Assembly (NCBI GenBank): GCA_963707955.1 | Contig: OY970176.1 | Coordinates: 1 to 64,000 of the forward strand | Source of the DNA: Candidatus Bathyarchaeota archaeon | Lineage (GTDB): Archaea; Thermoproteota; Bathyarchaeia; Bathyarchaeales; Bathycorpusculaceae | Length of the DNA: 64,000 nt | Reading direction: 5' to 3' | Shown here: positions 22,357-49,484 of the stretch, piece after piece | Position numbering within the stretch: position 1 is the first letter of the stretch | How the letters are laid out: every line of letters begins with the position of its first letter | Notes under the pieces: model-generated | Told to the model about the DNA's origin: nothing | Databases searched by the model: none | Seen by the model: only the letters and a program-made list of their open reading frames with translations | Made by a program: the position numbers and the translations under genes

Positions 22357-22451
22357 CAAACAGGCAGAAAAACGGTGCGTGCTGCAAAACATAAAAAGAT
22401 AAAAAGAGGATTATTGTCATTCCCAGAAAATAAGTGAGAGACAGACACAAA

Positions 22452-22739
22452 ATGGAAAAAGCGTTTGAGATGGGCAAGACCTCGGCTACTGGAAGCTTCC
22501 AGCTGCTCATATGCGTAGCCGTGTCTACCATAATCTTGGCCGTCGGATCCATAATTTTGGGCAGGTTTCTGACGACCGCCGAGTACGGGCTTTACGGAAT
22601 CGTGCTCGTCCCCGCAACGCTGATCAACCTGTTCAGGGACTGGGGCATAAACAGCGCCATGACAAAGTACATCGCAACCCTCAGAGCCTCAAACAAGGAA
22701 CAAGAAATACACGATTACATCGTCATCGGCGCGCGCTAA
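22452..22739 (+). pseudogene. Truncated 5' copy of the flippase gene 24483..26114
   Basis: About 280 bp near-identical to 24493-24770; identity stops at GGC followed by GCGCGC at 22729-22736. Confidence 0.92.
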
Positions 22740-22837
22740 TCTACGACTTCATCCAAAAACTACAGAAAAACCCAAACGAACTCGAAATACTTGGCGACGG
22801 AACCCAAAACAAATCCTATCTCCACATAAACGACTGA
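22736..22837 (+). pseudogene. Internal fragment of an NAD-dependent sugar epimerase/dehydratase
   Basis: IYDFIQKLQKNPNELEILGDGTQNKSYLHIND fits the GxGxQ..SY..D segment of archaeal UDP-glucose 4-epimerase-like SDRs; bounded by (CG)n on both sides. Confidence 0.75.
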
Positions 22838-22859
22838 GGCAAAAGATGCGCGCGCGATA

Positions 22860-24482: not shown

Positions 24483-26114
24483 TTGAAAGCCGTGGAAAAA
24501 GCGTTTGAGATGGGCAAGACCTCGGCTACTGGAAGCTTCCAGCTGCTCATAGGCGTAGCCGTGTCTACCATAATCTTGGCCGTCGGATCCATAATTTTGG
24601 GCAGGCTTCTGACGACCGCCGAGTATGGGCTTTACGGAATCGTAGTCGTCCCCGCAACGCTGATCAACCTCTTCAGGGACTGGGGCATAAACAGCGCCAT
24701 GACAAAGTACATCGCAGGCCTCAGAGCCTCAAACAGGGAACAAGAAATACACGATTACATCGTCACCGGCATAATCTTCGAAGTCGCAAGCGGCATCGCA
24801 CTTTCATTCCTGTCCCTGCTCTTGGCAAGCTTCATCGCCTCAGCAATCTTCAACAAACCAGAATCCGCATCCTACATAGCCATCGTCTCAGCCTCGATAA
24901 TCTCAGGCTCGCTACTCGCAGCGGTCCAAGCAGGCTTCATAGGCTACGAAAGAATGGAGCTCAACAGCTTCACACTCATCTGCCAAGCCATCGTGAGAAC
25001 CGCCATAGGCCCCGGACTCGTCCTGCTCGGATACGGCGTCCTGGGCGCAACCGTCGGCTTCACCACCGGCGCTGCAGCTGGTGGAGTCATCGGCTTAGCA
25101 GTCTTTTACCTGGCCCTGCTCAGACCCCTCACAAAAAAGCTAGCAAAGGATCCAAGCACACGCCCTAGGATGAGTGCCTCTAAAACTCTGAGAACAATGT
25201 TAAACTACGGAGTGCCACTTTCAATAGGCGGCATCCTGACGGGCATCCTAGGGCAAGTTTACGCTTTCATGATAATCCCTCTAACCAGCGAAACGATGTA
25301 CGGCAATTATCTCGTGGCAGGCAACTTCTCCGTCCTTCTAACCTTCTTCACCATCCCTATATCGACAGTGCTGTTCCCAGCGTTTGCAAAGCTGGACCCC
25401 CAGAACGAGCTTGAGTTCCTAAAAAACGTCTTCGCATCCTCAATCAAGTACACTTCCATACTGGTAGTGCCAGCAACGATGGTCCTAATGGCCCTATCAG
25501 GCCCGATAGTCGGCACATTGTACGGAGCAAAATACGTTTCCGCACCCTTCTTCCTAACCATATACGTCATAGGTAGCCTGTTCGCCGTCCTCGGAAGCCT
25601 AAGCTCAGGCGGTTTCCTATACGGCTTGGGAGAAACGAGAATAGTCATGATACAGAGTATAGTAACAGTGGCCATCGGCCTTCCCCTAGGCATCGTCCTT
25701 ATCCCAACGTTCGGAATAACAGGCCTCATCGTCGCAAGCGTCGTCGCAGGACTACCAAGCATGTTCTGGGGCCTCTACTGGGTATGGAAACACTACAAGG
25801 CCAAAGCGGACTTCGCATCATCAGCAAAGATCTTTGCATCATCAGCGATTGCTGCCGTCCTTGCATACTTGCCCATGGTCTTCCTCAACACGGCCAACTG
25901 GATAAAACTCATAATCGGCCTAATCATCTTCCTAGCCGCCTACATCTTCGGCGCACCCATGATCGGCGCAGTAAGCCTGACAGACATAAACAACCTCAGA
26001 ACCATGTTCTCCAGCATGAGCAGTATATCAAAGATAATAGACATCCCATTAAAAGCCGCAGAAAAAGCCGCACGGACCAAATCGGCAAACAGAAAAACAG
26101 GCGAGAAGCCTTAA
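24483..26114 (+). CDS. Oligosaccharide flippase (Wzx/MATE-like)
   Basis: Many TM helices, RLL...EYGLY, D.GI..A.TKY, LFPAFAKL. Confidence 0.88.
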   Translation: MKAVEKAFEMGKTSATGSFQLLIGVAVSTIILAVGSIILGRLLTTAEYGLYGIVVVPATLINLFRDWGINSAMTKYIAGLRASNREQEIHDYIVTGIIFEVASGIALSFLSLLLASFIASAIFNKPESASYIAIVSASIISGSLLAAVQAGFIGYERMELNSFTLICQAIVRTAIGPGLVLLGYGVLGATVGFTTGAAAGGVIGLAVFYLALLRPLTKKLAKDPSTRPRMSASKTLRTMLNYGVPLSIGGILTGILGQVYAFMIIPLTSETMYGNYLVAGNFSVLLTFFTIPISTVLFPAFAKLDPQNELEFLKNVFASSIKYTSILVVPATMVLMALSGPIVGTLYGAKYVSAPFFLTIYVIGSLFAVLGSLSSGGFLYGLGETRIVMIQSIVTVAIGLPLGIVLIPTFGITGLIVASVVAGLPSMFWGLYWVWKHYKAKADFASSAKIFASSAIAAVLAYLPMVFLNTANWIKLIIGLIIFLAAYIFGAPMIGAVSLTDINNLRTMFSSMSSISKIIDIPLKAAEKAARTKSANRKTGEKP

Positions 26115-26845: not shown

Positions 26846-27091
26846 ATGAACAAAGACCTTGACACGCGCGCAGTTCTCAAAGTAGTCGGTGAAGCCCTCT
26901 TCCTGTACGGGCTACTAGGCTGGACCTACGGAGTGCTAATACAGATAACACATCCTGACTTCCTGTACACAAGTCTGTCTCATCTCATACCTTGGATTAG
27001 AGTAGACACGTTCTCAGTGTTGTCTTTCATCTTAAGCATCATCGGATTCTTCATCTGGAGACTAACCCGAGAAACAGGCAGGCACCAGTGA
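26846..27091 (+). CDS. Small two-TM membrane protein
   Basis: Two hydrophobic helices, ATG start. Confidence 0.7.
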   Translation: MNKDLDTRAVLKVVGEALFLYGLLGWTYGVLIQITHPDFLYTSLSHLIPWIRVDTFSVLSFILSIIGFFIWRLTRETGRHQ

Positions 27092-27294
27092 AACCAGCGC
27101 GCTAGCGTGTTCCTAAATTCTTTCGGGAAGCAGCTTGCGTTGCTCATTTTGCTCTTCAACCATATTTGGACCATATTTGGACCATATAGGATACCCGGGG
27201 GGGAGGGTGTGAGAGCGAGAGAGCACCCAGCCGAACCTTGACGGTGACCATCGAAAAACGTCAAGCCTTCCTCTTGAACGCAATCTAGGAATTC

Positions 27295-27428
27295 AGGAAC
27301 AAGCATGCGTGCAAGAAACGGCTTCGACGTTCAAATACACCCTTCCAAAGTCTAGGAACTACACAAAAGGCCCAGAAAACGAGGCTTTCAGGTGCGCCAG
27401 ACCGGAAGGATCAGCGAAAGCTGAAAAC
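27295..27428 (+). repeat. Intergenic direct repeat, copy 1 (copy 2 is split: 30565-30582 plus 30817-30943)
   Basis: AAGAAACGGCTTCGACGTTCAAATACACC...GCTTTCAGGTGCGCCAGACCGGAAGG..CAGCGAAAGCTGAAAAC present twice. Confidence 0.93.
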
Positions 27429-27506
27429 GAGCAACTTCAGCGAGGGCGGATAACCAATATTTCTTTAAGCGTTCGTAAGGACATAATACGGTGAAGAGGG
27501 CTTACC

Positions 27507-27896
27507 GTGAGTAGAAAAGAAGAGGCGGAGCACTTACTCAAGAGATCAAAGGAATTTCTAGAAACCGCTGAATATCAGATAAGCAGAGGCCTTTACGGTA
27601 TAGCGGTCTTCAGCCTCGAGCAAGCATTGCAGCTATTCCTCAAGTCGAAGATGTTGATAGCAGGCGTCGACTACCCAAGAACACACGGGGTGAGAACACT
27701 CCTCGAAATACTCTCCGACGTGGAGTCTGATGAGAAAAAAAGAGGGATAAAACACATGTTGAACGATTACCTCCTTGAACTGGGCATGCTGGAAGATGCC
27801 TATATAACATCTCGGTACGTTATGAGAGAGTTCACAAGCGAAGAAGCTCAGAGATTAGCAAAAACCGTTAAGGAAGTGATGAACAACGTCAAATGA
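27507..27896 (+). CDS. HEPN domain protein (HEPN-MNT pair)
   Basis: EQALQLFLK, YPRTH, YITSRY. Confidence 0.9.
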   Translation: MSRKEEAEHLLKRSKEFLETAEYQISRGLYGIAVFSLEQALQLFLKSKMLIAGVDYPRTHGVRTLLEILSDVESDEKKRGIKHMLNDYLLELGMLEDAYITSRYVMREFTSEEAQRLAKTVKEVMNNVK

Positions 27897-27903
27897 AACC
27901 ATA

Positions 27904-28203
27904 GTGAAGACGGCTCTCAAGAGAAGAGAAGCCTTCAGAAACCTGGAAAAAAATCTGCAAACCATCCGAGAGACCGTCAGAAAGCTGGATCCCCAGGTTG
28001 AAGTGTACCTGTTCGGTTCAACAGCAGAGAAAAGGCACACCTATTCGAGCGACATAGACGTTCTCATAATCACTAAAAAAGAGCCGGCTAGAGTGCAATA
28101 TGAACTGTGGAAAGCCGGAATCAAGGATCCATTCGAAATTCACGTACAACCACCCGAGAAACTACACCTCTACAAAAGAAAAACCAAACTCGTCAAAGCA
28201 TAG
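27904..28203 (+). CDS. Minimal nucleotidyltransferase (MNT) antitoxin
   Basis: VYLFGS...SDIDVL, PFEIH. Confidence 0.9.
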   Translation: MKTALKRREAFRNLEKNLQTIRETVRKLDPQVEVYLFGSTAEKRHTYSSDIDVLIITKKEPARVQYELWKAGIKDPFEIHVQPPEKLHLYKRKTKLVKA

Positions 28204-28329
28204 GCTTCCACCCGCTCAACAAAAACCTTTTCGAAGCCCCTAAAATTCTTCTCTTGCCAAACCTACCTCTGACGCGATCTCCATCAATAATACTATCTGC
28301 AACGTATGTCTGACAATTGCACGCGCGCT

Positions 28330-28740
28330 TTATGGCTCCTTCTTCGGTTCGGTCTTTGCCGGTTCGGTCTTTGCCGGTTCGGTCTTTGCCGGTTCTTTCT
28401 CTTCGACTGTCTTCAAAGCCCCTTTTAATTCGACTTTAATCTCCCTCAGCAGGTTGACGCCTAAGGATCCAATTTTTCCACCGCCCCACATGACGAAAGC
28501 CATCAGTACAAACCAAACAAGCAAACCAGTAGCCCTGTTCATGTCTTTGCCTGAAACCACCAGCGTACCGTTTACGGAAATGTCTGAGAAATTGAACAGT
28601 TTCGGAGGGCCGTTGCTGCCCGTGAAAACAAGTATCATCTCAAAGACCGCGAAGAAAATCACAGCGACGCCTACGGCCAACAAAACGTATCCCACAATCC
28701 TTCCGTTTTTCCAGTTCAACTTCAAACGTTTCAGCCTCAC
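28330..28740 (-). CDS. Two-TM membrane protein with C-terminal (EPAKT)x3 repeat
   Basis: Hydrophobic helices; 15-bp tandem GGTTCGGTCTTTGCC at about 28346-28395. Confidence 0.75.
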   Translation of the reverse strand: MRLKRLKLNWKNGRIVGYVLLAVGVAVIFFAVFEMILVFTGSNGPPKLFNFSDISVNGTLVVSGKDMNRATGLLVWFVLMAFVMWGGGKIGSLGVNLLREIKVELKGALKTVEEKEPAKTEPAKTEPAKTEPKKEP

Positions 28741-28854
28741 AAACCACTACCAAATTACTTACTATAAAAGCTTGCATGTAAAAGCATTAACAAGCGCGCG
28801 CGTGGTAAGAAAGTATAAATAAAAGTAATACAAGCTTACTAACTGGTAACCGAA

Positions 28855-29106
28855 TTGCCCACGAAGAACGTTGGCCCAAAAGGGCAGGTTGTGATTCCTA
28901 AACGCATAAGAGATGCCTTGGGTCTAAAGCCAGGCGTCGACGTCACGATTGAAGTCAGAGGAGAAGAAATAGTGATAAGCAAACCAAAAATTGAAGGCAG
29001 TTACACCGAGTACTACACTTCCACATACTCTCCAAAACTGAAAGAATCCGTAGACGTCAAAAAAATAATAACCGAGGAAGTAGCCCAGAGACATGCCCTA
29101 CATTGA
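28855..29106 (+). CDS. AbrB/MazE-type antitoxin
   Basis: VGPKGQVVIPKRIRDALGLKPG. Confidence 0.92.
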   Translation: MPTKNVGPKGQVVIPKRIRDALGLKPGVDVTIEVRGEEIVISKPKIEGSYTEYYTSTYSPKLKESVDVKKIITEEVAQRHALH

Positions 29107-29503
29107 TTCGAACGTCTTCATATACGCCGCCATATACCAAACAGAATCGCAACAAAAAGCAAAAAAAGCCAAAGAAACACTCCTAAAGATAGAAAACGGA
29201 GAGATACCAGCATACACGTCAACGCTGACATGGGACGAAGTCGTATGGGTCGTCAGCAAGCTATTAAACAGAAATGACGGAATAAACCAAGGCAAAAAAC
29301 TACTCGGCTTCCCAAACCTAGAATTCATAGACGTAGACGAAGGGATACTCACCTTGGCTCAAAACCTATTAAACAAATACAAGCTCAGCCCGCGCGATTC
29401 CATACACGCAACCTCGGCAGTCATCAGAAAGATAAAAACAGTTATCAGCGACGACAAAGACTTTGACCAAGTCAAAGAAATAACCAGGACTCCACTAGTA
29501 TAA
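29093..29503 (+). CDS. vapC: VapC PIN-domain toxin
   Basis: YIDSNVFI, TWDEV, PRDSIHA, ISDDKDFD. Confidence 0.92.
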   Translation: MPYIDSNVFIYAAIYQTESQQKAKKAKETLLKIENGEIPAYTSTLTWDEVVWVVSKLLNRNDGINQGKKLLGFPNLEFIDVDEGILTLAQNLLNKYKLSPRDSIHATSAVIRKIKTVISDDKDFDQVKEITRTPLV

Positions 29504-29557
29504 CCCACGCGCGTGGACGTTTAAAGACTTGGAAACGGGATAGGAATAATCAGACGC

Positions 29558-29632
29558 CTCAAAATCTGTGCCGACGAAAGCGTTAACAATGCCATCGTTG
29601 AAGGCCTAAAGAGATGCCGCGTAGGAGCATGA
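29558..29632 (+). pseudogene. N-terminal remnant of a DUF5615 PIN-like gene
   Basis: LKICADESVNNAIVEGLKRCRVGA* resembles the N-terminus of 21020..21373 (KFLADENIPIRAVETLKQ); lies between CCACGCGCGTGG and ACGCACGT. Confidence 0.6.
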
Positions 29633-29737
29633 CGCACGTTAAGGTAAGGCAGCGAGTGTGATCGGCAGCCAAACTCAACAGTTTCCGACATATTTATTAA
29701 TGTAAGGCATTATATGTTTCTGTGGGTGAAATTGGTT

Positions 29738-29998
29738 TTGGTAGAAACCGTTACCGTCACTTCGAAGGGGCAGGTGACCATTCCTTCAAGGCTGAGAAGA
29801 GAACTGAAAATACTGAAAGGAGAAAAACTCCTGATTGTCCGCGAGGGAAACGCCCTCAAAATCATTCCAGTACCCAAGCTGTCCAAGTTAGCCGGCGTGG
29901 ACGAGGAAATGTTCCGTGACAGAAAGCCTTCAGAAGAAATTCAGACCATGAGAAAGGAGTGGACAAAAGAATTTGACAAACGAACCCAGCAAGCCTAA
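29738..29998 (+). CDS. AbrB/MazE-type antitoxin
   Basis: VTSKGQVTIPSRLRRELKI. Confidence 0.9.
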   Translation: MVETVTVTSKGQVTIPSRLRRELKILKGEKLLIVREGNALKIIPVPKLSKLAGVDEEMFRDRKPSEEIQTMRKEWTKEFDKRTQQA

Positions 29999-30416
29999 GA
30001 TCGTCCTGGACACAAAACCCTTCATCAAACTTTTCGCAAAAGAAGAAGGCTGGGAAACCGTTCAGAAAATCCTCTGCAAAATCGAAGATGACGAAATCGA
30101 AGCGACGATCAGCGTAGTCACCCTCACAGAAATCTACTACAAGTATCTGCACGAGAAAAGACCAGACTTGGCCAGAACCAGAACTCAAGAGCTCAGGTAC
30201 GCCGTATACCTCAAGAAGCTAGAGATAGACGAAGAGGCCGCCGTCAAAGCCGGCGAATTCAAAGGCAAATACAACGTTCCCATAGCTGACGCCTTCATAG
30301 CAGCCGCCGCCTACTTTGAAGCATCAACCATAATCAGCGACGACCCAGACTTCAAGAGAATACCCGAAATCAAAACCCTGACCGAAAAAGAATTCATCTC
30401 ACACCCGCCAACATAG
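29973..30416 (+). CDS. vapC: VapC PIN-domain toxin
   Basis: VLDT, TLTEI, IADAFIAA, SDDPDF. Confidence 0.92.
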   Translation: MTNEPSKPKIVLDTKPFIKLFAKEEGWETVQKILCKIEDDEIEATISVVTLTEIYYKYLHEKRPDLARTRTQELRYAVYLKKLEIDEEAAVKAGEFKGKYNVPIADAFIAAAAYFEASTIISDDPDFKRIPEIKTLTEKEFISHPPT

Positions 30417-30816
30417 CGCGCTAGCGTGTCCCCAAATTCAGTTTTTCAAGCGTGACGTGACCGAGTTGATTCATGTCCAATAGACAATGCTCCTTGCATC
30501 AAGATCAGACAGCAATCCTCGAACCAACCAAGCATATAAGAAAAACCGGCATGCGAACGAATAAAGGAACAAGCATGCGCGCTTTTCAACAATCCTCGCC
30601 AACTGTATATGCAAAACGTATATGCAAAATGTATATGCTTCTACGCGCTCCATTCTCTTTCTCACTGTGCCTTTCCTGACACTTTCAATTAATCTCAGAC
30701 TGACATTAAAGCGAACTTGCTCGCCTACTTCTTCCCTCCACTTATAATGATTCCCCCACAACTACAGGGAACCATCAGAAAACATCCTTCACCCTCTTAA
30801 AATAGAACTTGAACGA

Positions 30817-30943
30817 GCACGCACGCAAGAAACGGCTTCGACGTTCAAATACACCCCTTCCCAAGTCTAGGAACTACACAAAGAGCCCCGAAAACGAGGC
30901 TTTCAGGTGCGCCAGACCGGAAGGGCCAGCGAAAGCTGAAAAC
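30817..30943 (+). repeat. Intergenic direct repeat, copy 2 of 27303-27428
   Basis: Near-identical over about 125 bp with scattered substitutions. Confidence 0.93.
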
Positions 30944-31126
30944 TCGCATTATCTCGCCTGCCCAGAAAAAGATTTTGGACACAACTGAATCAAATGCTCA
31001 TTAAGACCATAAAGCATGATCTTCTGCGTAAGATTTATGTAGAGGATTATTCTATAGGACGATTCCTCATCGGTTTAATTAGCCGTTCTGTCAACTTTAT
31101 GCTGACGGAAAAGAAAGGAGAAGAAA

Positions 31127-31822
31127 ATGCTTCAGTCATCTGTGTCAGTGGTCATTCCCGCCTTCAACGAACAGAAAACCATAGGACACGTGATCGAAGA
31201 AACCATCTCGGTGATGGACAGCCTAGGAGTCCCATACGAGATCATCATAGTTGACGACGGGTCCACGGACAGAACAGGACAAGTAGCCACGACGTACAAA
31301 GCAACCGTTCTGACGAACGAAATAAACAGGGGAAAAGGCTACGCCATAAGAAAAGGCTTCGAACAAGCAACGGGCGACATCATCGTCACCCTGGACTCTG
31401 ACGGAGAACACAGCCCCAAAGAGATACCAGACCTACTCAATCCGCTGTCCAACGGCACGGACATCGTTGGCGGTTCAAGGTTCTTAGGCAACAACGCCTA
31501 CTCAACGACCAGACTCAACCGTCTCGGCAACTTCATCTTCAACATGGCCATCGCAACGCTAACTGGAAAACGGGTAACAGACAGCCAAACAGGCTTCAGA
31601 GCCTTCAAAAAAGAAGTCCTCCAGAAACTCAACCTAGCCTCTTCAGGCTACGAAATAGAAACCGAAATCACAGTTAAGGGACTGAAGAACGGCTTCACCT
31701 TCGAAGAAAAACCCATAACCTGCAAGCAGAGACAATACAGCGTTTCAAAACTGAAAATACTCAGCGACGGAACCAAAATCCTCAAAACAATGCTGAAGGC
31801 CAACCTGGCCACGATCGACTAG
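31127..31822 (+). CDS. GT2, dolichol-phosphate glycosyltransferase (DPM1-like)
   Basis: VIPAFNE, DDGSTD, NRGKG, LDSDGEH, GSRF, DSQTGFRA. Confidence 0.92.
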   Translation: MLQSSVSVVIPAFNEQKTIGHVIEETISVMDSLGVPYEIIIVDDGSTDRTGQVATTYKATVLTNEINRGKGYAIRKGFEQATGDIIVTLDSDGEHSPKEIPDLLNPLSNGTDIVGGSRFLGNNAYSTTRLNRLGNFIFNMAIATLTGKRVTDSQTGFRAFKKEVLQKLNLASSGYEIETEITVKGLKNGFTFEEKPITCKQRQYSVSKLKILSDGTKILKTMLKANLATID

Positions 31823-33933: not shown

Positions 33934-34098
33934 GTGTTTTCACCTTCGCAGACTCAGGCATCGTGAGTCTTAATAAACCTTATTGTCTAATTGAGCAACA
34001 CAGATACAAATCCCAAAACAAACACAGCACGCGCACTCTGCCTGGAGGTTTATAAGCGCTGCAGTTGACTTGTTTCTTGAGTAGCTGGCGATTAACGT

Positions 34099-47445: not shown

Positions 47446-49147
47446 CTAGTAGGTTCGCGCCGCGGGCGGCCACCTTGTGATAGTGACTGGCGAGTACTCT
47501 AGTCGCGGTCCATCTTTCGTGTAGTACGCCAGTGTGTGTTTCAGCCATTTTTCGTCGTCACGCTTTGGATAATCGGTCCTCGAGTGGGCTCCGCGCGACT
47601 CGTTTCTTGGAAGAGCTCCGACAAAAGTGACCTCGGCTAGCTCCAGCATGAAGTCCAGCTGCAGGGCATTCAGCATGCCAGTGTTGAATTGTCTGCCCTT
47701 GTCTTTCACCTTTATTCTTTTGAATCTCTGCTTCAGCTGTCTTATTTCTTTCAGGCCGTTTTCAAGCTGGTCACCTCTTCGGTAGATCCAGGCTTTCTCA
47801 TTCATCGTGCGCCTCATCTCATCCCTTATTTTGGGCACACTTTCACTGCCCTCGCTTCCCAGTATCCCATCAAAAACCCGCTTTTCTTCTGCCATAAGCC
47901 TTTCATGTTGAATCTCGTGCACACCGTTTCTCAGGGCATGCATGGCAGCTTCCTCGCCTGACACGGCTCCGAAGACTAGGCATTCACTTGTCGAGTTTGT
48001 TCCCAGCCTGTTTGCTCCGTGTATGCTCAGACAGGAGCATTCTCCGGAAGCGTACAATCCAGAAATCGGCGTTTCGGTTCTTATGTTAGCTTTGATTCCT
48101 CCCATCGAGTAGTGAGCCGCGGGTCTGATAGGTATCAACTCCTTTACAGGGTCTACACCGCCGAGTTTCATTGCAACGTCTCGGATCAGCGGCAATCTTA
48201 AGTTGATTTTTTCTTCACCCAAGTGTCTCAGGTCTATTGCTATGTAGGGCCCGTGAGGTCCCTGCAGACCTCTTCCTTCCAGGATTTCCGTCTGCTCAGC
48301 CCTTGAAACAACGTCGCGTGGGGCGAGCTCCATCTTTTCCGGCGCATAACGTTTCATGAAACGCTCGCCCTTCGAGTTGACCAAGTAGCCTCCTTCGCCA
48401 CGGGTCTCCTTCGGTTATCAGCACGCCAGAGGGAACCAAGCCTGTCGGATGAAACTGCACAAATTCCATGTCTTCCAGTGGTGCCCCGGCACGATAGGCC
48501 ATTGCCATTCCGTCGCCGGTTGTTGTGTGTGAAAAAGTGGTGAACTCATAGATGCGTTCGTGACCTCCGGTTGCCATCACGATCGATTTGGCATTGAACG
48601 CGTGCATTTCCCCGCTTTTCATCTCTATGGCCGTCAACCCTGCTGCCCTGTCGTTCTCGACTATGAGCGAGGTGGCGAACCACTCGTCGTAGAACCTGAT
48701 GTTCGGGTATGACGTTGCTTTTCCATACAACGCGTGCATCTCGTGGAATCCGGTCATGTCCGCTGCAAAGCATGCTCGTGGAAACGTGTGACCACCGAAC
48801 GCTCTTTGGTCTATCTTCCCGTCTGGGGTTCGGCTCCATGGGCATCCCCAGTGTTCAGTGAGGACTATTTCTCTTGGAGCCTGTTTTACAAAGGACTCTA
48901 CGACATCTTGGTCTGCTAGGTAATCAGCGCCTTTCACCGTGTCGAAAGCGTGCAGGTCAAACGAGTCCTTTTCACGCATCGCCGCTGCGGTTCCACCCTG
49001 CGCGCACACCGAGTGTGAACGTATCGGGTGGTGCTTTGAGATTACGGCTATATCCAGTTTGTCGCTGACCTCAGCGGCAGCCACCGCAGCTCTAAGACCG
49101 GCTAGGCCGGCTCCGATTATGGCTACGTCGTGAGTGAGTTTTTCCAT
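47446..49147 (-). pseudogene. Fumarate reductase/SDH flavoprotein (TfrA/SdhA-like), +1 frameshift near 48405
   Basis: GAGLAG, RSHSVCAQGG, QFHPTG, HGANRLGTNS, ESRGAH; removing one base restores LITEG-A/T-RGEGGYLVN; may be a sequencing error. Confidence 0.85.
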
Positions 49148-49484
49148 GCCGTTCACCTGGTTGGCAAGTAGTTAGGGATAAGGTAGACTTCTGACCTGCG
49201 CTTTATAGTTTTCCAAACTAGGTTCTGTTAACTCTTGTGGTCTTGCTTGAATAAGGGTTGTCCACGTTAACCGAAGAGCCTTTTTGCCAGACATGCGTGT
49301 GAGTCTCTAAACGGATTGTTTTCCTACGATAGCAGATTAGTTGACAGTTTCTAGGTGCATTCTGTTGACTCTTCGGAGCCTAAACAAGGAGAGCGCGCGC
49401 GCTCACCCGTCAAGTTACTAGAACCCTGCGAGCAAATACTTAAGTGCACGAACCTTAGAACGCATATCTAGAGGTGAATTCCGC

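Follow-up and report, generated by a model that had tools for sequence, protein, structure and literature searches.

Positions 27295–30943 of the stretch of Bathyarchaeia DNA analysed here (64,000 nucleotides, called the window) are very probably a pile-up of MITEs derived from an insertion sequence of the IS5/IS1182 superfamily that is common in Bathyarchaeia. This interpretation draws on repeat families, on ends that are common to these elements and to transposase-bearing ones, and on presence or absence at orthologous sites. The ends are a 24-bp inverted repeat, GCGCGC-WWGC-KTGTTCCTRAATTC, which every element in the pile-up would bear. Because the elements end in this repeat, an alternating GC-rich tract lies at every boundary, and where elements adjoin, tracts stand on both sides. 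In the proposed arrangement, an intact family-A MITE would precede the first copy of a short repeated unit, while the second would come after a short MITE, a truncated one with iterons and, probably, an old end of family A. An earlier note had taken the two copies for the empty and filled states of one site, with a single 234-bp piece inserted in the tract of copy 2, copy 1 left untouched, and the tract working through Z-DNA or a hairpin. That account is now scarcely tenable, and the apparent internal empty/filled pair is ordinary transposon debris.

The letters themselves had been read correctly. The junction of copy 1 is AGGAACAA-GCATGCGTGC-AAGAAACGGC (27295–27322), and that of copy 2 consists of AGGAACAAGCATGCGCGC up to 30582 and of GCACGCACGC-AAGAAACGGC at 30817–30836. 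The near-identical downstream repeat is equally real: in alignment, 27313–27426 and 30827–30941 show about eight differences in 114 nt, or ~93% identity over 114/115 nt. It is upstream that the comparison fails, since neither copy is empty: copy 1 holds the 216-bp MITE-A and copy 2 a 167-bp MITE. The 15-bp upstream match that had been treated as shared flank, AGGAACAAGCATGCG, belongs to the right inverted repeat of a MITE, the 216-bp one in copy 1 and the different, 167-bp one in copy 2. Its 14 exact genomic occurrences against ~0.004 expected exclude chance and are due to its place at the tip of an inverted repeat that has many copies. When the genome and its relatives were searched for further copies, the flanking repeat proved to be multi-copy, but the 234 bp did not recur as one unit and the downstream unit was present only twice in the 2.35-Mb genome.

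The element ahead of copy 1 is a complete family-A MITE of 216 bp on the forward strand (27097–27312), delimited by multi-copy alignment and profile search, with its left repeat at 27097–27120, its right repeat at 27289–27312 and an interior of CCATATTTGGA iterons and a G-run. It can be aligned end to end with 22 further genomic copies (23 in this genome, G000), and it matches a family-A model built without it at E = 6.5e-65 (nhmmer); the congeners G001 and G007 contain 24 and 16 family-A matches. Contig depth over the element is ~30 times that of the flanks, and metagenome contigs break at it, as a repeat would cause. The simplest reading of a contig joint from 27120 to 30556 (depth 3.7, one side of 25 nt) is that it comes from a further short element ending in these repeats. 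A Pfam scan of ORFs overlapping the local elements, from which the minus-strand ORF at 26980–27306 was left out, returned no family.

Metagenome contig L222 shows the site of copy 1 in its true empty state, being collinear with 26850–27600 yet MITE-free. Its GAAACC-GGCGCGC-T-GGAAACGG corresponds to GAAACC-A-GCGC[208 bp]GTGC-A-AGAAACGG in the window, and directly upstream it has the ortholog of a forward-strand 81-aa ORF (26846–27091, no Pfam family) whose stop lies 5 nt ahead of MITE-A in the window. Since this empty site carries a GC tract, the proposal that DNA is gained at the tracts holds, and to that extent the earlier account was right. The same is seen at G000 position 430607, where G000 has a MITE-A, G001 is empty (GCGCACGC) and G007 has another MITE (MITE-B) at the same point.

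The supposed 234-bp insert of copy 2 is a mosaic whose parts have different relatives. Ahead of it lies the forward-strand 167-bp MITE (30416–30582), which has the same 24-bp ends as MITE-A (30416–30439 and 30559–30582) around a different interior and has a 91% copy in G001 (G001:C4). The first 142 nt of the ‘insert’ (30583–30724, minus strand) are a truncated, iteron-bearing piece of a family B/D MITE, with GCATATAC three times; its homologs in G007 and G001 terminate in GCACGCACGC or GCTCGCGCGC, the window's own end having decayed to GCTCGCCTAC, and homology to these elements stops at 30724. The remainder (30725–30826, forward strand) comprises 46 nt without assignment and then 30771–30825, with the tract 30817–30826 last. 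Positions 30771–30825 match the final 65 positions of the family-A model weakly but in register (with a 102-nt target, E = 0.0083), a score reached by none of 500 shuffles, and the match is missing at E ≤ 1 when the whole window is searched; tentatively, they may be a decayed MITE-A right end. Independent contigs from two runs of one study, possibly including the source sample, span 30397–30854 with 0 differences, which excludes a misassembly confined to this record.

The link to a transposase comes from longer elements with the same ends. Fuzzy matching located 86 repeat ends across the genome; in G000 such ends bound 389080–390159 and a second element from 1671432 onward, both with frameshifted DUF772 and DDE_Tnp_1 frames. 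Intact elements of 1064–1085 bp (1.06–1.09 kb), each with a 328-aa transposase, lie between the same ends on other Bathyarchaeia contigs; since the 24-bp repeats bound transposase-encoding insertion sequences, the tract is the tip of the repeat. The protein scores 73.6–84.3 bits against PF01609, the DDE_Tnp_1 catalytic domain (cut-off 23), and 38.4–41.5 bits against PF05598, the N-terminal DUF772 (cut-off 23.1). It falls below the NCBIfam equivalog cut-offs for IS1182 (140–142 vs 270), IS5_4 (99–103 vs 140) and IS5_3 (66–71 vs 110) and is therefore placed at the superfamily level only. Related genomes carry the family in 6 of 31 cases by DNA search and in 9 of 31 by repeat pattern. Among 311 distinct repeat ends, transitions account for 122 and transversions for 155 of the departures of the outer six bases from GCGCGC, whereas the element interior gives 170:100. 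The tips thus lack a transition bias, contrary to the suggestion that purine–pyrimidine alternation is preserved through C/T and G/A swaps. Tracts of the (GC)4 type are classical Z-forming sequences, and the alternating GC of at least 8 nt present here would satisfy the sequence requirement for Z-DNA.

It is an even call whether the transposase would choose short palindromes or alternating runs as its targets, in many cases taking their place, and leave no regular target duplication, as is reported for IS1272. Further informative loci are G000 1976047, filled in G000 and empty in G001 and G007, and the pair formed by an empty G007 site (L019) and its filled counterpart in G001 (L020). Seven G000 copies were queried for orthologous sites, giving two clean cases, two composite ones and three without a usable ortholog; at 597763, 626574 and 631827 the sites in G001 and G007 hold kilobases of unrelated DNA. 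In the opposite direction, a search of G000 for clean empty sites matching the relatives' MITEs (39 loci and 81 two-ended elements) turned up nothing but insertions common to both or intergenic DNA that had diverged, with L039 as the sole partial case. The six empty/filled pairs imply different gains: the element plus 4, plus 0, or the element together with its GCGC tips. The six empty sites are few and none represents a de novo event; three hold alternating tracts, one a hairpin, one TCCTAAGGA, and one has a palindrome (GATC) in G007 only. GCGC is wholly missing from three of the six, two of which have another palindrome or hairpin instead.

A stricter mechanism is possible, if doubtful, in which the outer GCGC is a 4-bp duplication of a fixed target (TA-GCGC-TA) in the style of the IS5 group, and the GCGCGCGC 8-mers are excision footprints where the two copies have been rejoined. 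The L019/L020 pair differs by exactly the element plus 4, and L039 has GCAC on either side, as a direct rather than an inverted repeat. Among intergenic runs GCGCGCGC is also the most frequent (198, with CGCGCGCG at 25), its TA flanks are like those of occupied sites, and a G001 8-mer is allelic to two MITEs. On the other hand, TAGCGCTA is unenriched (8 vs 9.6 expected), the L222 tract has 6–7 nt where the window has 4+4, and congeners without detectable elements retain 39–82 sites. GCGC is missing from the empty sites of G000 1976047 and 378629, where the tips therefore came with the insert. The flanks of 52 two-ended elements are mixed, with GCGC on both sides in 29, GCAC/GCAC in one and unlike sides in 22.

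The tracts also have a distribution of their own. Each of the genus's 11 genomes (G000 included) has 7–114 copies of the AGCGCGCGCT palindrome, against 0–1 in each of 20 genomes from other genera; most copies are intergenic, and the palindrome lies at homology breakpoints between genomes. Three congeners have 39–82 AGCGCGCGCT sites, yet no repeat-end matches, a combination for which MITE biology gives no explanation. Between 6 and 50 kb of the window, 8 of 38 breakpoints fall within 12 nt of a tract, compared with a mean of 1.7 under a uniform null (P = 0.0002) and 3.4 under an intergenic-stratified null (P = 0.012). This test is relied on in preference to the 32 of 120 breakpoints near tracts (3.1 expected) at repeat-selected loci, a sample that is biased because the loci were picked for containing the repeat. 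Runs of at least 6 nt are present in 17 of 28 intergenic gaps at 10–36 kb vs 2 of 22 at 36.5–64 kb. It is conceivable, though on balance unlikely, that small gene modules are shuffled in the genus by cutting and joining, with the genus-restricted intergenic (T)A-GCGCGCGC-T(A) at the joints, and toxin–antitoxin pairs, glycan genes and membrane proteins might, with the same reserve, be examples of modules so moved. Such joints could be scars of IS1182-like elements that replaced palindromes or left, the work of an unrecognised recombination system, or the product of end-joining that writes alternating GC. If the tracts do mark joints, the MITEs would be only the visible part of the process.

Of these origins, a dedicated integron-like system, with the tracts as its core sites and the MITEs merely sharing or exploiting them, is improbable. 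Besides the breakpoint counts, the uneven spread of runs across gaps and the restriction of the motif to the genus, it is favoured by a tract-bounded membrane-protein module that lies in unrelated contexts in G000 and G001; the minus-strand module at 28318–28804 (tract 28318–28328, 136-aa ORF 28330–28740, tract 28794–28804) is present in G001 at ~91%, tract-bounded there too, with unrelated DNA outside the tracts. However, a scan of 59 window ORFs found no integrase, resolvase or other recombinase family, the site is just 8–12 bp with arms that are not conserved, and several junction tracts are missing from both parental contexts, which is not expected from recombination between existing sites. 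The tracts could also be filler or scars of break repair, in which illegitimate joins would gain or keep alternating GC with no part played by the transposon. At 22729–22736, a flippase fragment and an epimerase fragment are joined through GCGCGC found in neither parent, GCACGCGCAC at 34027–34036 is missing from both G007 contexts, and G007 has CTAGCGCGCG at a deletion of DNA kept in G000 and G001. This explanation is nevertheless very unlikely: the parents are inferred from two relatives only, there is no enzyme candidate, and tracts with conserved flanks on both sides were kept between species in both examinable cases.

Taken as a family of insertion sequences and MITEs, the elements can be compared with known systems. 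A report on IS1272, an IS1182-family element of staphylococci, describes insertion into inverted-repeat structures without duplications, termed ‘inverted-repeat-replacing’ (PMC5678879). The Bathyarchaeia DDE transposase has IS1182 as its best NCBIfam model, and its elements have terminal inverted repeats; like IS1272, they show no consistent target duplication and often lie just downstream of genes, and they may also resemble it in inserting at a palindrome or hairpin that is partly replaced. The score below the IS1182 cut-off sets the family apart, as do its archaeal host, large MITE families, repeat tips of alternating GC and length of 1.07 kb, IS1182-family elements being 1.3–1.95 kb long. 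It shares with the IS5 family DUF772 and DDE_Tnp_1 matches above Pfam thresholds, a length of ~1.1 kb and a single ORF, and with IS5 MITE derivatives the short, non-coding, intergenic elements with common ends. It differs in missing the IS5 equivalog cut-offs and in its inconsistent duplication, where IS5-type elements are expected to give one of 2–9 bp. The Sulfolobus SM elements are archaeal examples of such derivatives, and prokaryotic MITEs are reportedly the subject of a published review (PMC10969869). REP/BIME sequences are short, lineage-restricted, extragenic palindromes of bacteria and targets of some insertion sequences. The genus palindromes are likewise short, ~100 per genome, nearly all intergenic and confined to a lineage, but they measure 10–12 bp, their flanks are not conserved and their host is archaeal. 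The attC sites of integrons are imperfect and 57–141 nt long, and Ghaly et al. are said to have reported archaeal integrons in 2022. Integron arrays resemble the locus in their small gene modules, many of them toxin–antitoxin pairs, with palindromic boundaries and differing contexts in relatives; here, in contrast, the boundary is a perfect palindrome of 8–12 bp and no integrase is nearby.

A literature search found no paper on this family. It is previously undescribed; its ends are defined, it has an autonomous partner, and there are real empty sites for it. As Bathyarchaeia are uncultured, their genome dynamics are known from sequence only. A palindrome-seeking DDE transposon in archaea, some 100 genus-specific (GC)4 palindromes per genome and palindromes at mosaic junctions are each of note. 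If confirmed, they would give a handle on the exchange of accessory gene modules in Bathyarchaeia, and the little-studied IS1272-type mode of insertion would no longer be limited to staphylococci.

Both copies of the repeated unit are on the forward strand and lie upstream of genes. Copy 1, placed by pairwise alignment and non-coding, precedes the HEPN gene and folds into an imperfect hairpin of ~70 nt plus a CAGC-GAAA-GCUG hairpin; its homolog in L222 is likewise upstream of HEPN. Copy 2 precedes a family-2 glycosyltransferase gene (31127–31822) and has a homolog with the same downstream sequence in contig L199. An 18-mer search of metagenomes gave 54 stretches, two of them real homologs, and an exact 29-mer search gave no matches. 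An Rfam scan assigned no family, a permissive scan giving only a chance lncRNA match (E = 0.53). Identity as a tRNA or att site was ruled out, the window having no tRNA, and a coding role was rejected: the ORFs at 27309–27494 and 30809–30988 have no Pfam family and the copies differ by an indel. Between the units, all on the forward strand, lie a HEPN (27507–27896) and nucleotidyltransferase (27904–28203) toxin–antitoxin pair, a MazE/AbrB-type antitoxin (28855–29106) with a PIN toxin (29093–29503) followed by a tract at 29506–29515, and a second antitoxin (29714–29998) and PIN gene (29973–30416), whose TAG stop codon overlaps the start of the 167-bp MITE.

The elements that end in alternating GC runs are IS5/IS1182-superfamily MITEs of Bathyarchaeia, and two of them lie beside the copies of a 114/115-nt repeat unit in the region described in the earlier note, whose observation was accurate but whose interpretation was mistaken. 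The quoted strings are present in the window where the note placed them, the downstream repeat is genuine (27313-27426 versus 30827-30941, about 8 of 114 positions being unlike), and AGGAACAAGCATGCGCGC is indeed separated from GCACGCACGC-AAGAAACGGC by 234 bp (30583-30816). The two copies are nonetheless not the empty and filled forms of one site. AGGAACAAGCATGCG, the flank of copy 1, belongs to a family-A MITE as its right repeat; in copy 2 it has this position in another element, of 167 bp (30416-30582), which has the same ends as family A and a 91% copy in the congener G001. This 15-mer occurs exactly 14 times in the window's own genome, G000. A BLAST search of 27080-27440 against that genome found 27096-27312 repeated at more than 20 other sites, and the unit not.

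Alignment of 23 copies gives family A a length of about 200-216 bp and sharp ends, which are 24-bp inverted repeats (left GCGCGCTAGCGTGTTCCTRAATTC, right GAATTYAGGAACAAGCATGCGCGC); a model built from 17 other family-A copies matched 27097-27311 at E = 6.5e-65. Three 11-13-nt ‘iterons’ stand in tandem in each of the two MITE families, of CCATATTTGGA type in family A (window 27150-27190) and of GCATATAC type in family B/D (30606-30640), and the window's family-A copy has one iteron more than the other 22. Elsewhere in G000, the family-A MITE at 1468833-1469149 has a further insertion of about 100 bp nested in it, which lacks GCGC ends and is old, since it is common to the related genomes G001, G007 and G010. 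Another, at 626772-626800, adjoins a gene that is truncated relative to G001; other DNA is found at this point in G001 (7 kb) and G007 (2.7 kb), which places the MITE on a rearrangement breakpoint.

The 234 bp, taken in the note as one insert, is composite, its parts matching different element families. On the minus strand, 30583-30724 matches the section of another MITE family that holds its iterons, three GCATATAC repeats. A related element in G007 and G001 terminates in GAGCTTGCACGCACGC or GCTCGCGCGC; this end corresponds to window 30711-30724, decayed to GCTCGCCTAC, and the other half of the element is absent, the remainder adjoining the 167-bp element. The last 65 positions of the family-A model align in register with the next stretch, 30725-30826, which stops exactly at the unit. 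Support for this match is weak: E = 0.0083 for the 102-nt target, a score reached by none of 500 shuffles, and no family-A match at E ≤ 1 for this stretch in a search of the whole window. In two public runs, both of the same study, contigs span 30397-30854 with no difference, and depth over 27088-27231 is about 30x that of the flanks, which fits a repeat.

Six sites can be compared in empty and filled form. At copy 1 of the unit, the metagenome contig L222, collinear with about 26850-27600 (81-aa ORF, unit and HEPN), gives an empty GAAACC-GGCGCGC-T-GGAAACGG, and the window a filled GAAACC-A-GCGC[208 bp]GTGC-A-AGAAACGG. At G000 430607, TTTTCA-GCGCACGC-AATTTC in G001 is the empty form of TTTTCA-GCGC[MITE-A]GCGC-AATATC in G000; G007 is filled likewise, but by a family-B MITE. 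For the pair of loci L019 (G007) and L020 (G001), the empty form is a 10-nt tract and the filled form the 10-nt tract + element + 4. At G000 1976047, G001 and G007 are empty and without GCGC, so TA-GCGC...GCGG-T came with the insert. At G000 378629, the empty form is the palindromic TCCTAAGGA of G001 and the filled form a MITE, 400 bp and a solo tract (a tract with no element), and a hairpin intact in G000 has half replaced in G001, at L039, by a MITE between GCAC and GCAC. No one duplication rule fits all six sites; the pattern is one of palindromic or alternating targets, variable loss and no regular duplication. A literature search found no paper on these Bathyarchaeia elements and one relevant precedent. 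The pattern resembles the published account of IS1272, a member of the IS1182 family (PMC5678879), and the chances are about even that the Bathyarchaeia elements insert by an IS1272-like mechanism.

Longer pairs of the same ends occur in G000 at 389080-390159 and 1671432-1672600, around frameshifted frames that in both cases carry DUF772 and DDE_Tnp_1. A scan of one genome per species yielded 91 stretches with the exact end; the 80 titles listed are Bathyarchaeia or Bathyarchaeota MAGs with few exceptions (Thermoproteota, Nitrososphaeria, Promethearchaeati and an uncultured archaeon). Amongst the end-bearing stretches are intact elements of 1064-1085 bp with a single 328-aa ORF; intact transposase copies were found only in other Bathyarchaeia contigs, both long G000 copies examined being frameshifted. 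The ORF scores 74-84 bits to PF01609 and 38-42 bits to PF05598, and among NCBIfam models it scores highest against IS1182 (140-142 bits, cut-off 270) and IS5 (99-103, cut-off 140), which places the element in the IS5/IS1182 superfamily, outside any curated family.

In the repeat, the tract takes up the outer 6 nt, and each of these six positions is 83-87% conserved over 311 distinct ends. The earlier suggestion that swaps at the tips keep the alternation is not borne out. Transitions by definition preserve purine-pyrimidine alternation, and departures from GCGCGC are not enriched for them (122 transitions, 155 transversions, versus 170:100 for substitutions inside family A).

Alternating G/C runs of at least 8 nt number 455 in G000, and only 18% lie in long ORFs, though these make up 81% of the genome; for other GC-only hexamers the share within ORFs is 81-87%. 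The commonest intergenic run is exactly GCGCGCGC (198 cases, versus 25 for CGCGCGCG), the most frequent flanks are TA and TA, and just 111 of the 455 have a repeat-like flank. The runs are clustered (per 20 kb, variance 12.0 and mean 3.9). Of the window's 28 intergenic gaps at 10-36 kb, a region with glycan genes and toxin-antitoxin modules, 17 contain a run of at least 6 nt, as do 2 of 22 at 36.5-64 kb and none of the 7 at 0-10 kb. AGCGCGCGCT, which is mostly intergenic and clustered, has 114 copies in G000, 13 of these inside crude ORFs, and 7-92 in each of the 10 congeners, versus 0-1 in each of 20 genomes of other genera; controls give 0-4. G004, G008 and G009 have 39, 56 and 82 of the sites and 0 repeat-end matches.

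Blocks of homology that G000 shares with G001 or G007 also tend to stop at tracts. Of the 38 breakpoints in the 6-50 kb region, eight are no more than 12 nt away from a tract, against a mean of 1.7 under a uniform null (P = 0.0002) and 3.4 when stratified by intergenic or coding position (P = 0.012). A membrane-protein module (28318-28804) with a tract at each boundary has surroundings in G000 that are unrelated to those in G001. At 22449-22856, GCGCGC, present in neither parent, joins two fragments: one, from a flippase, duplicates the N-terminus of that gene (24483-26114), and the other is 100 bp of an epimerase; the latter is shortened relative to G001 by a 1.44-kb deletion that ends beside another tract. 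GCACGCGCAC at 34027-34036 is missing from both G007 contexts, and a solo tract in G007 lies at a deletion. Solo tracts are candidate footprints, preferred targets, recombination sites or repair filler. Against their being purely scars, the two examinable tracts whose flanks are conserved on either side are both kept between species. What merits further attention is the (GC)4 palindrome found throughout the genus at mosaic junctions.

The 2,346,764-bp single-contig G000 genome contains just these two copies of the unit, and a search of 30 related genomes yielded none. L222 has a homolog upstream of HEPN, and another, from about its 21st nt on, precedes the glycosyltransferase gene in the metagenome contig L199, where the sequence downstream is the same as that of copy 2. 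The unit is predicted to fold into two hairpins, one of about 70 nt and one with a GAAA loop (plus-strand Z-scores -1.85 and -2.8); copy 2 has one additional C-G pair, from changes on both sides. A repeat end precedes both copies at the identical base, which may reflect repeated hits on one preferred site, one element taking another's place or conversion between the copies.

Elsewhere in the window, a fumarate reductase/succinate dehydrogenase flavoprotein (47446-49156) is split into two overlapping ORFs, an FAD_binding_2 N-part (48296-49156) and a C-part (47446-48384), possibly by a frameshift or sequencing error. A 15-bp tandem repeat, CGGTTCGGTCTTTGC, of about 3.7 copies lies at 28345-28400, at the 3' end of a minus-strand 136-aa ORF, and is likewise found in G001.
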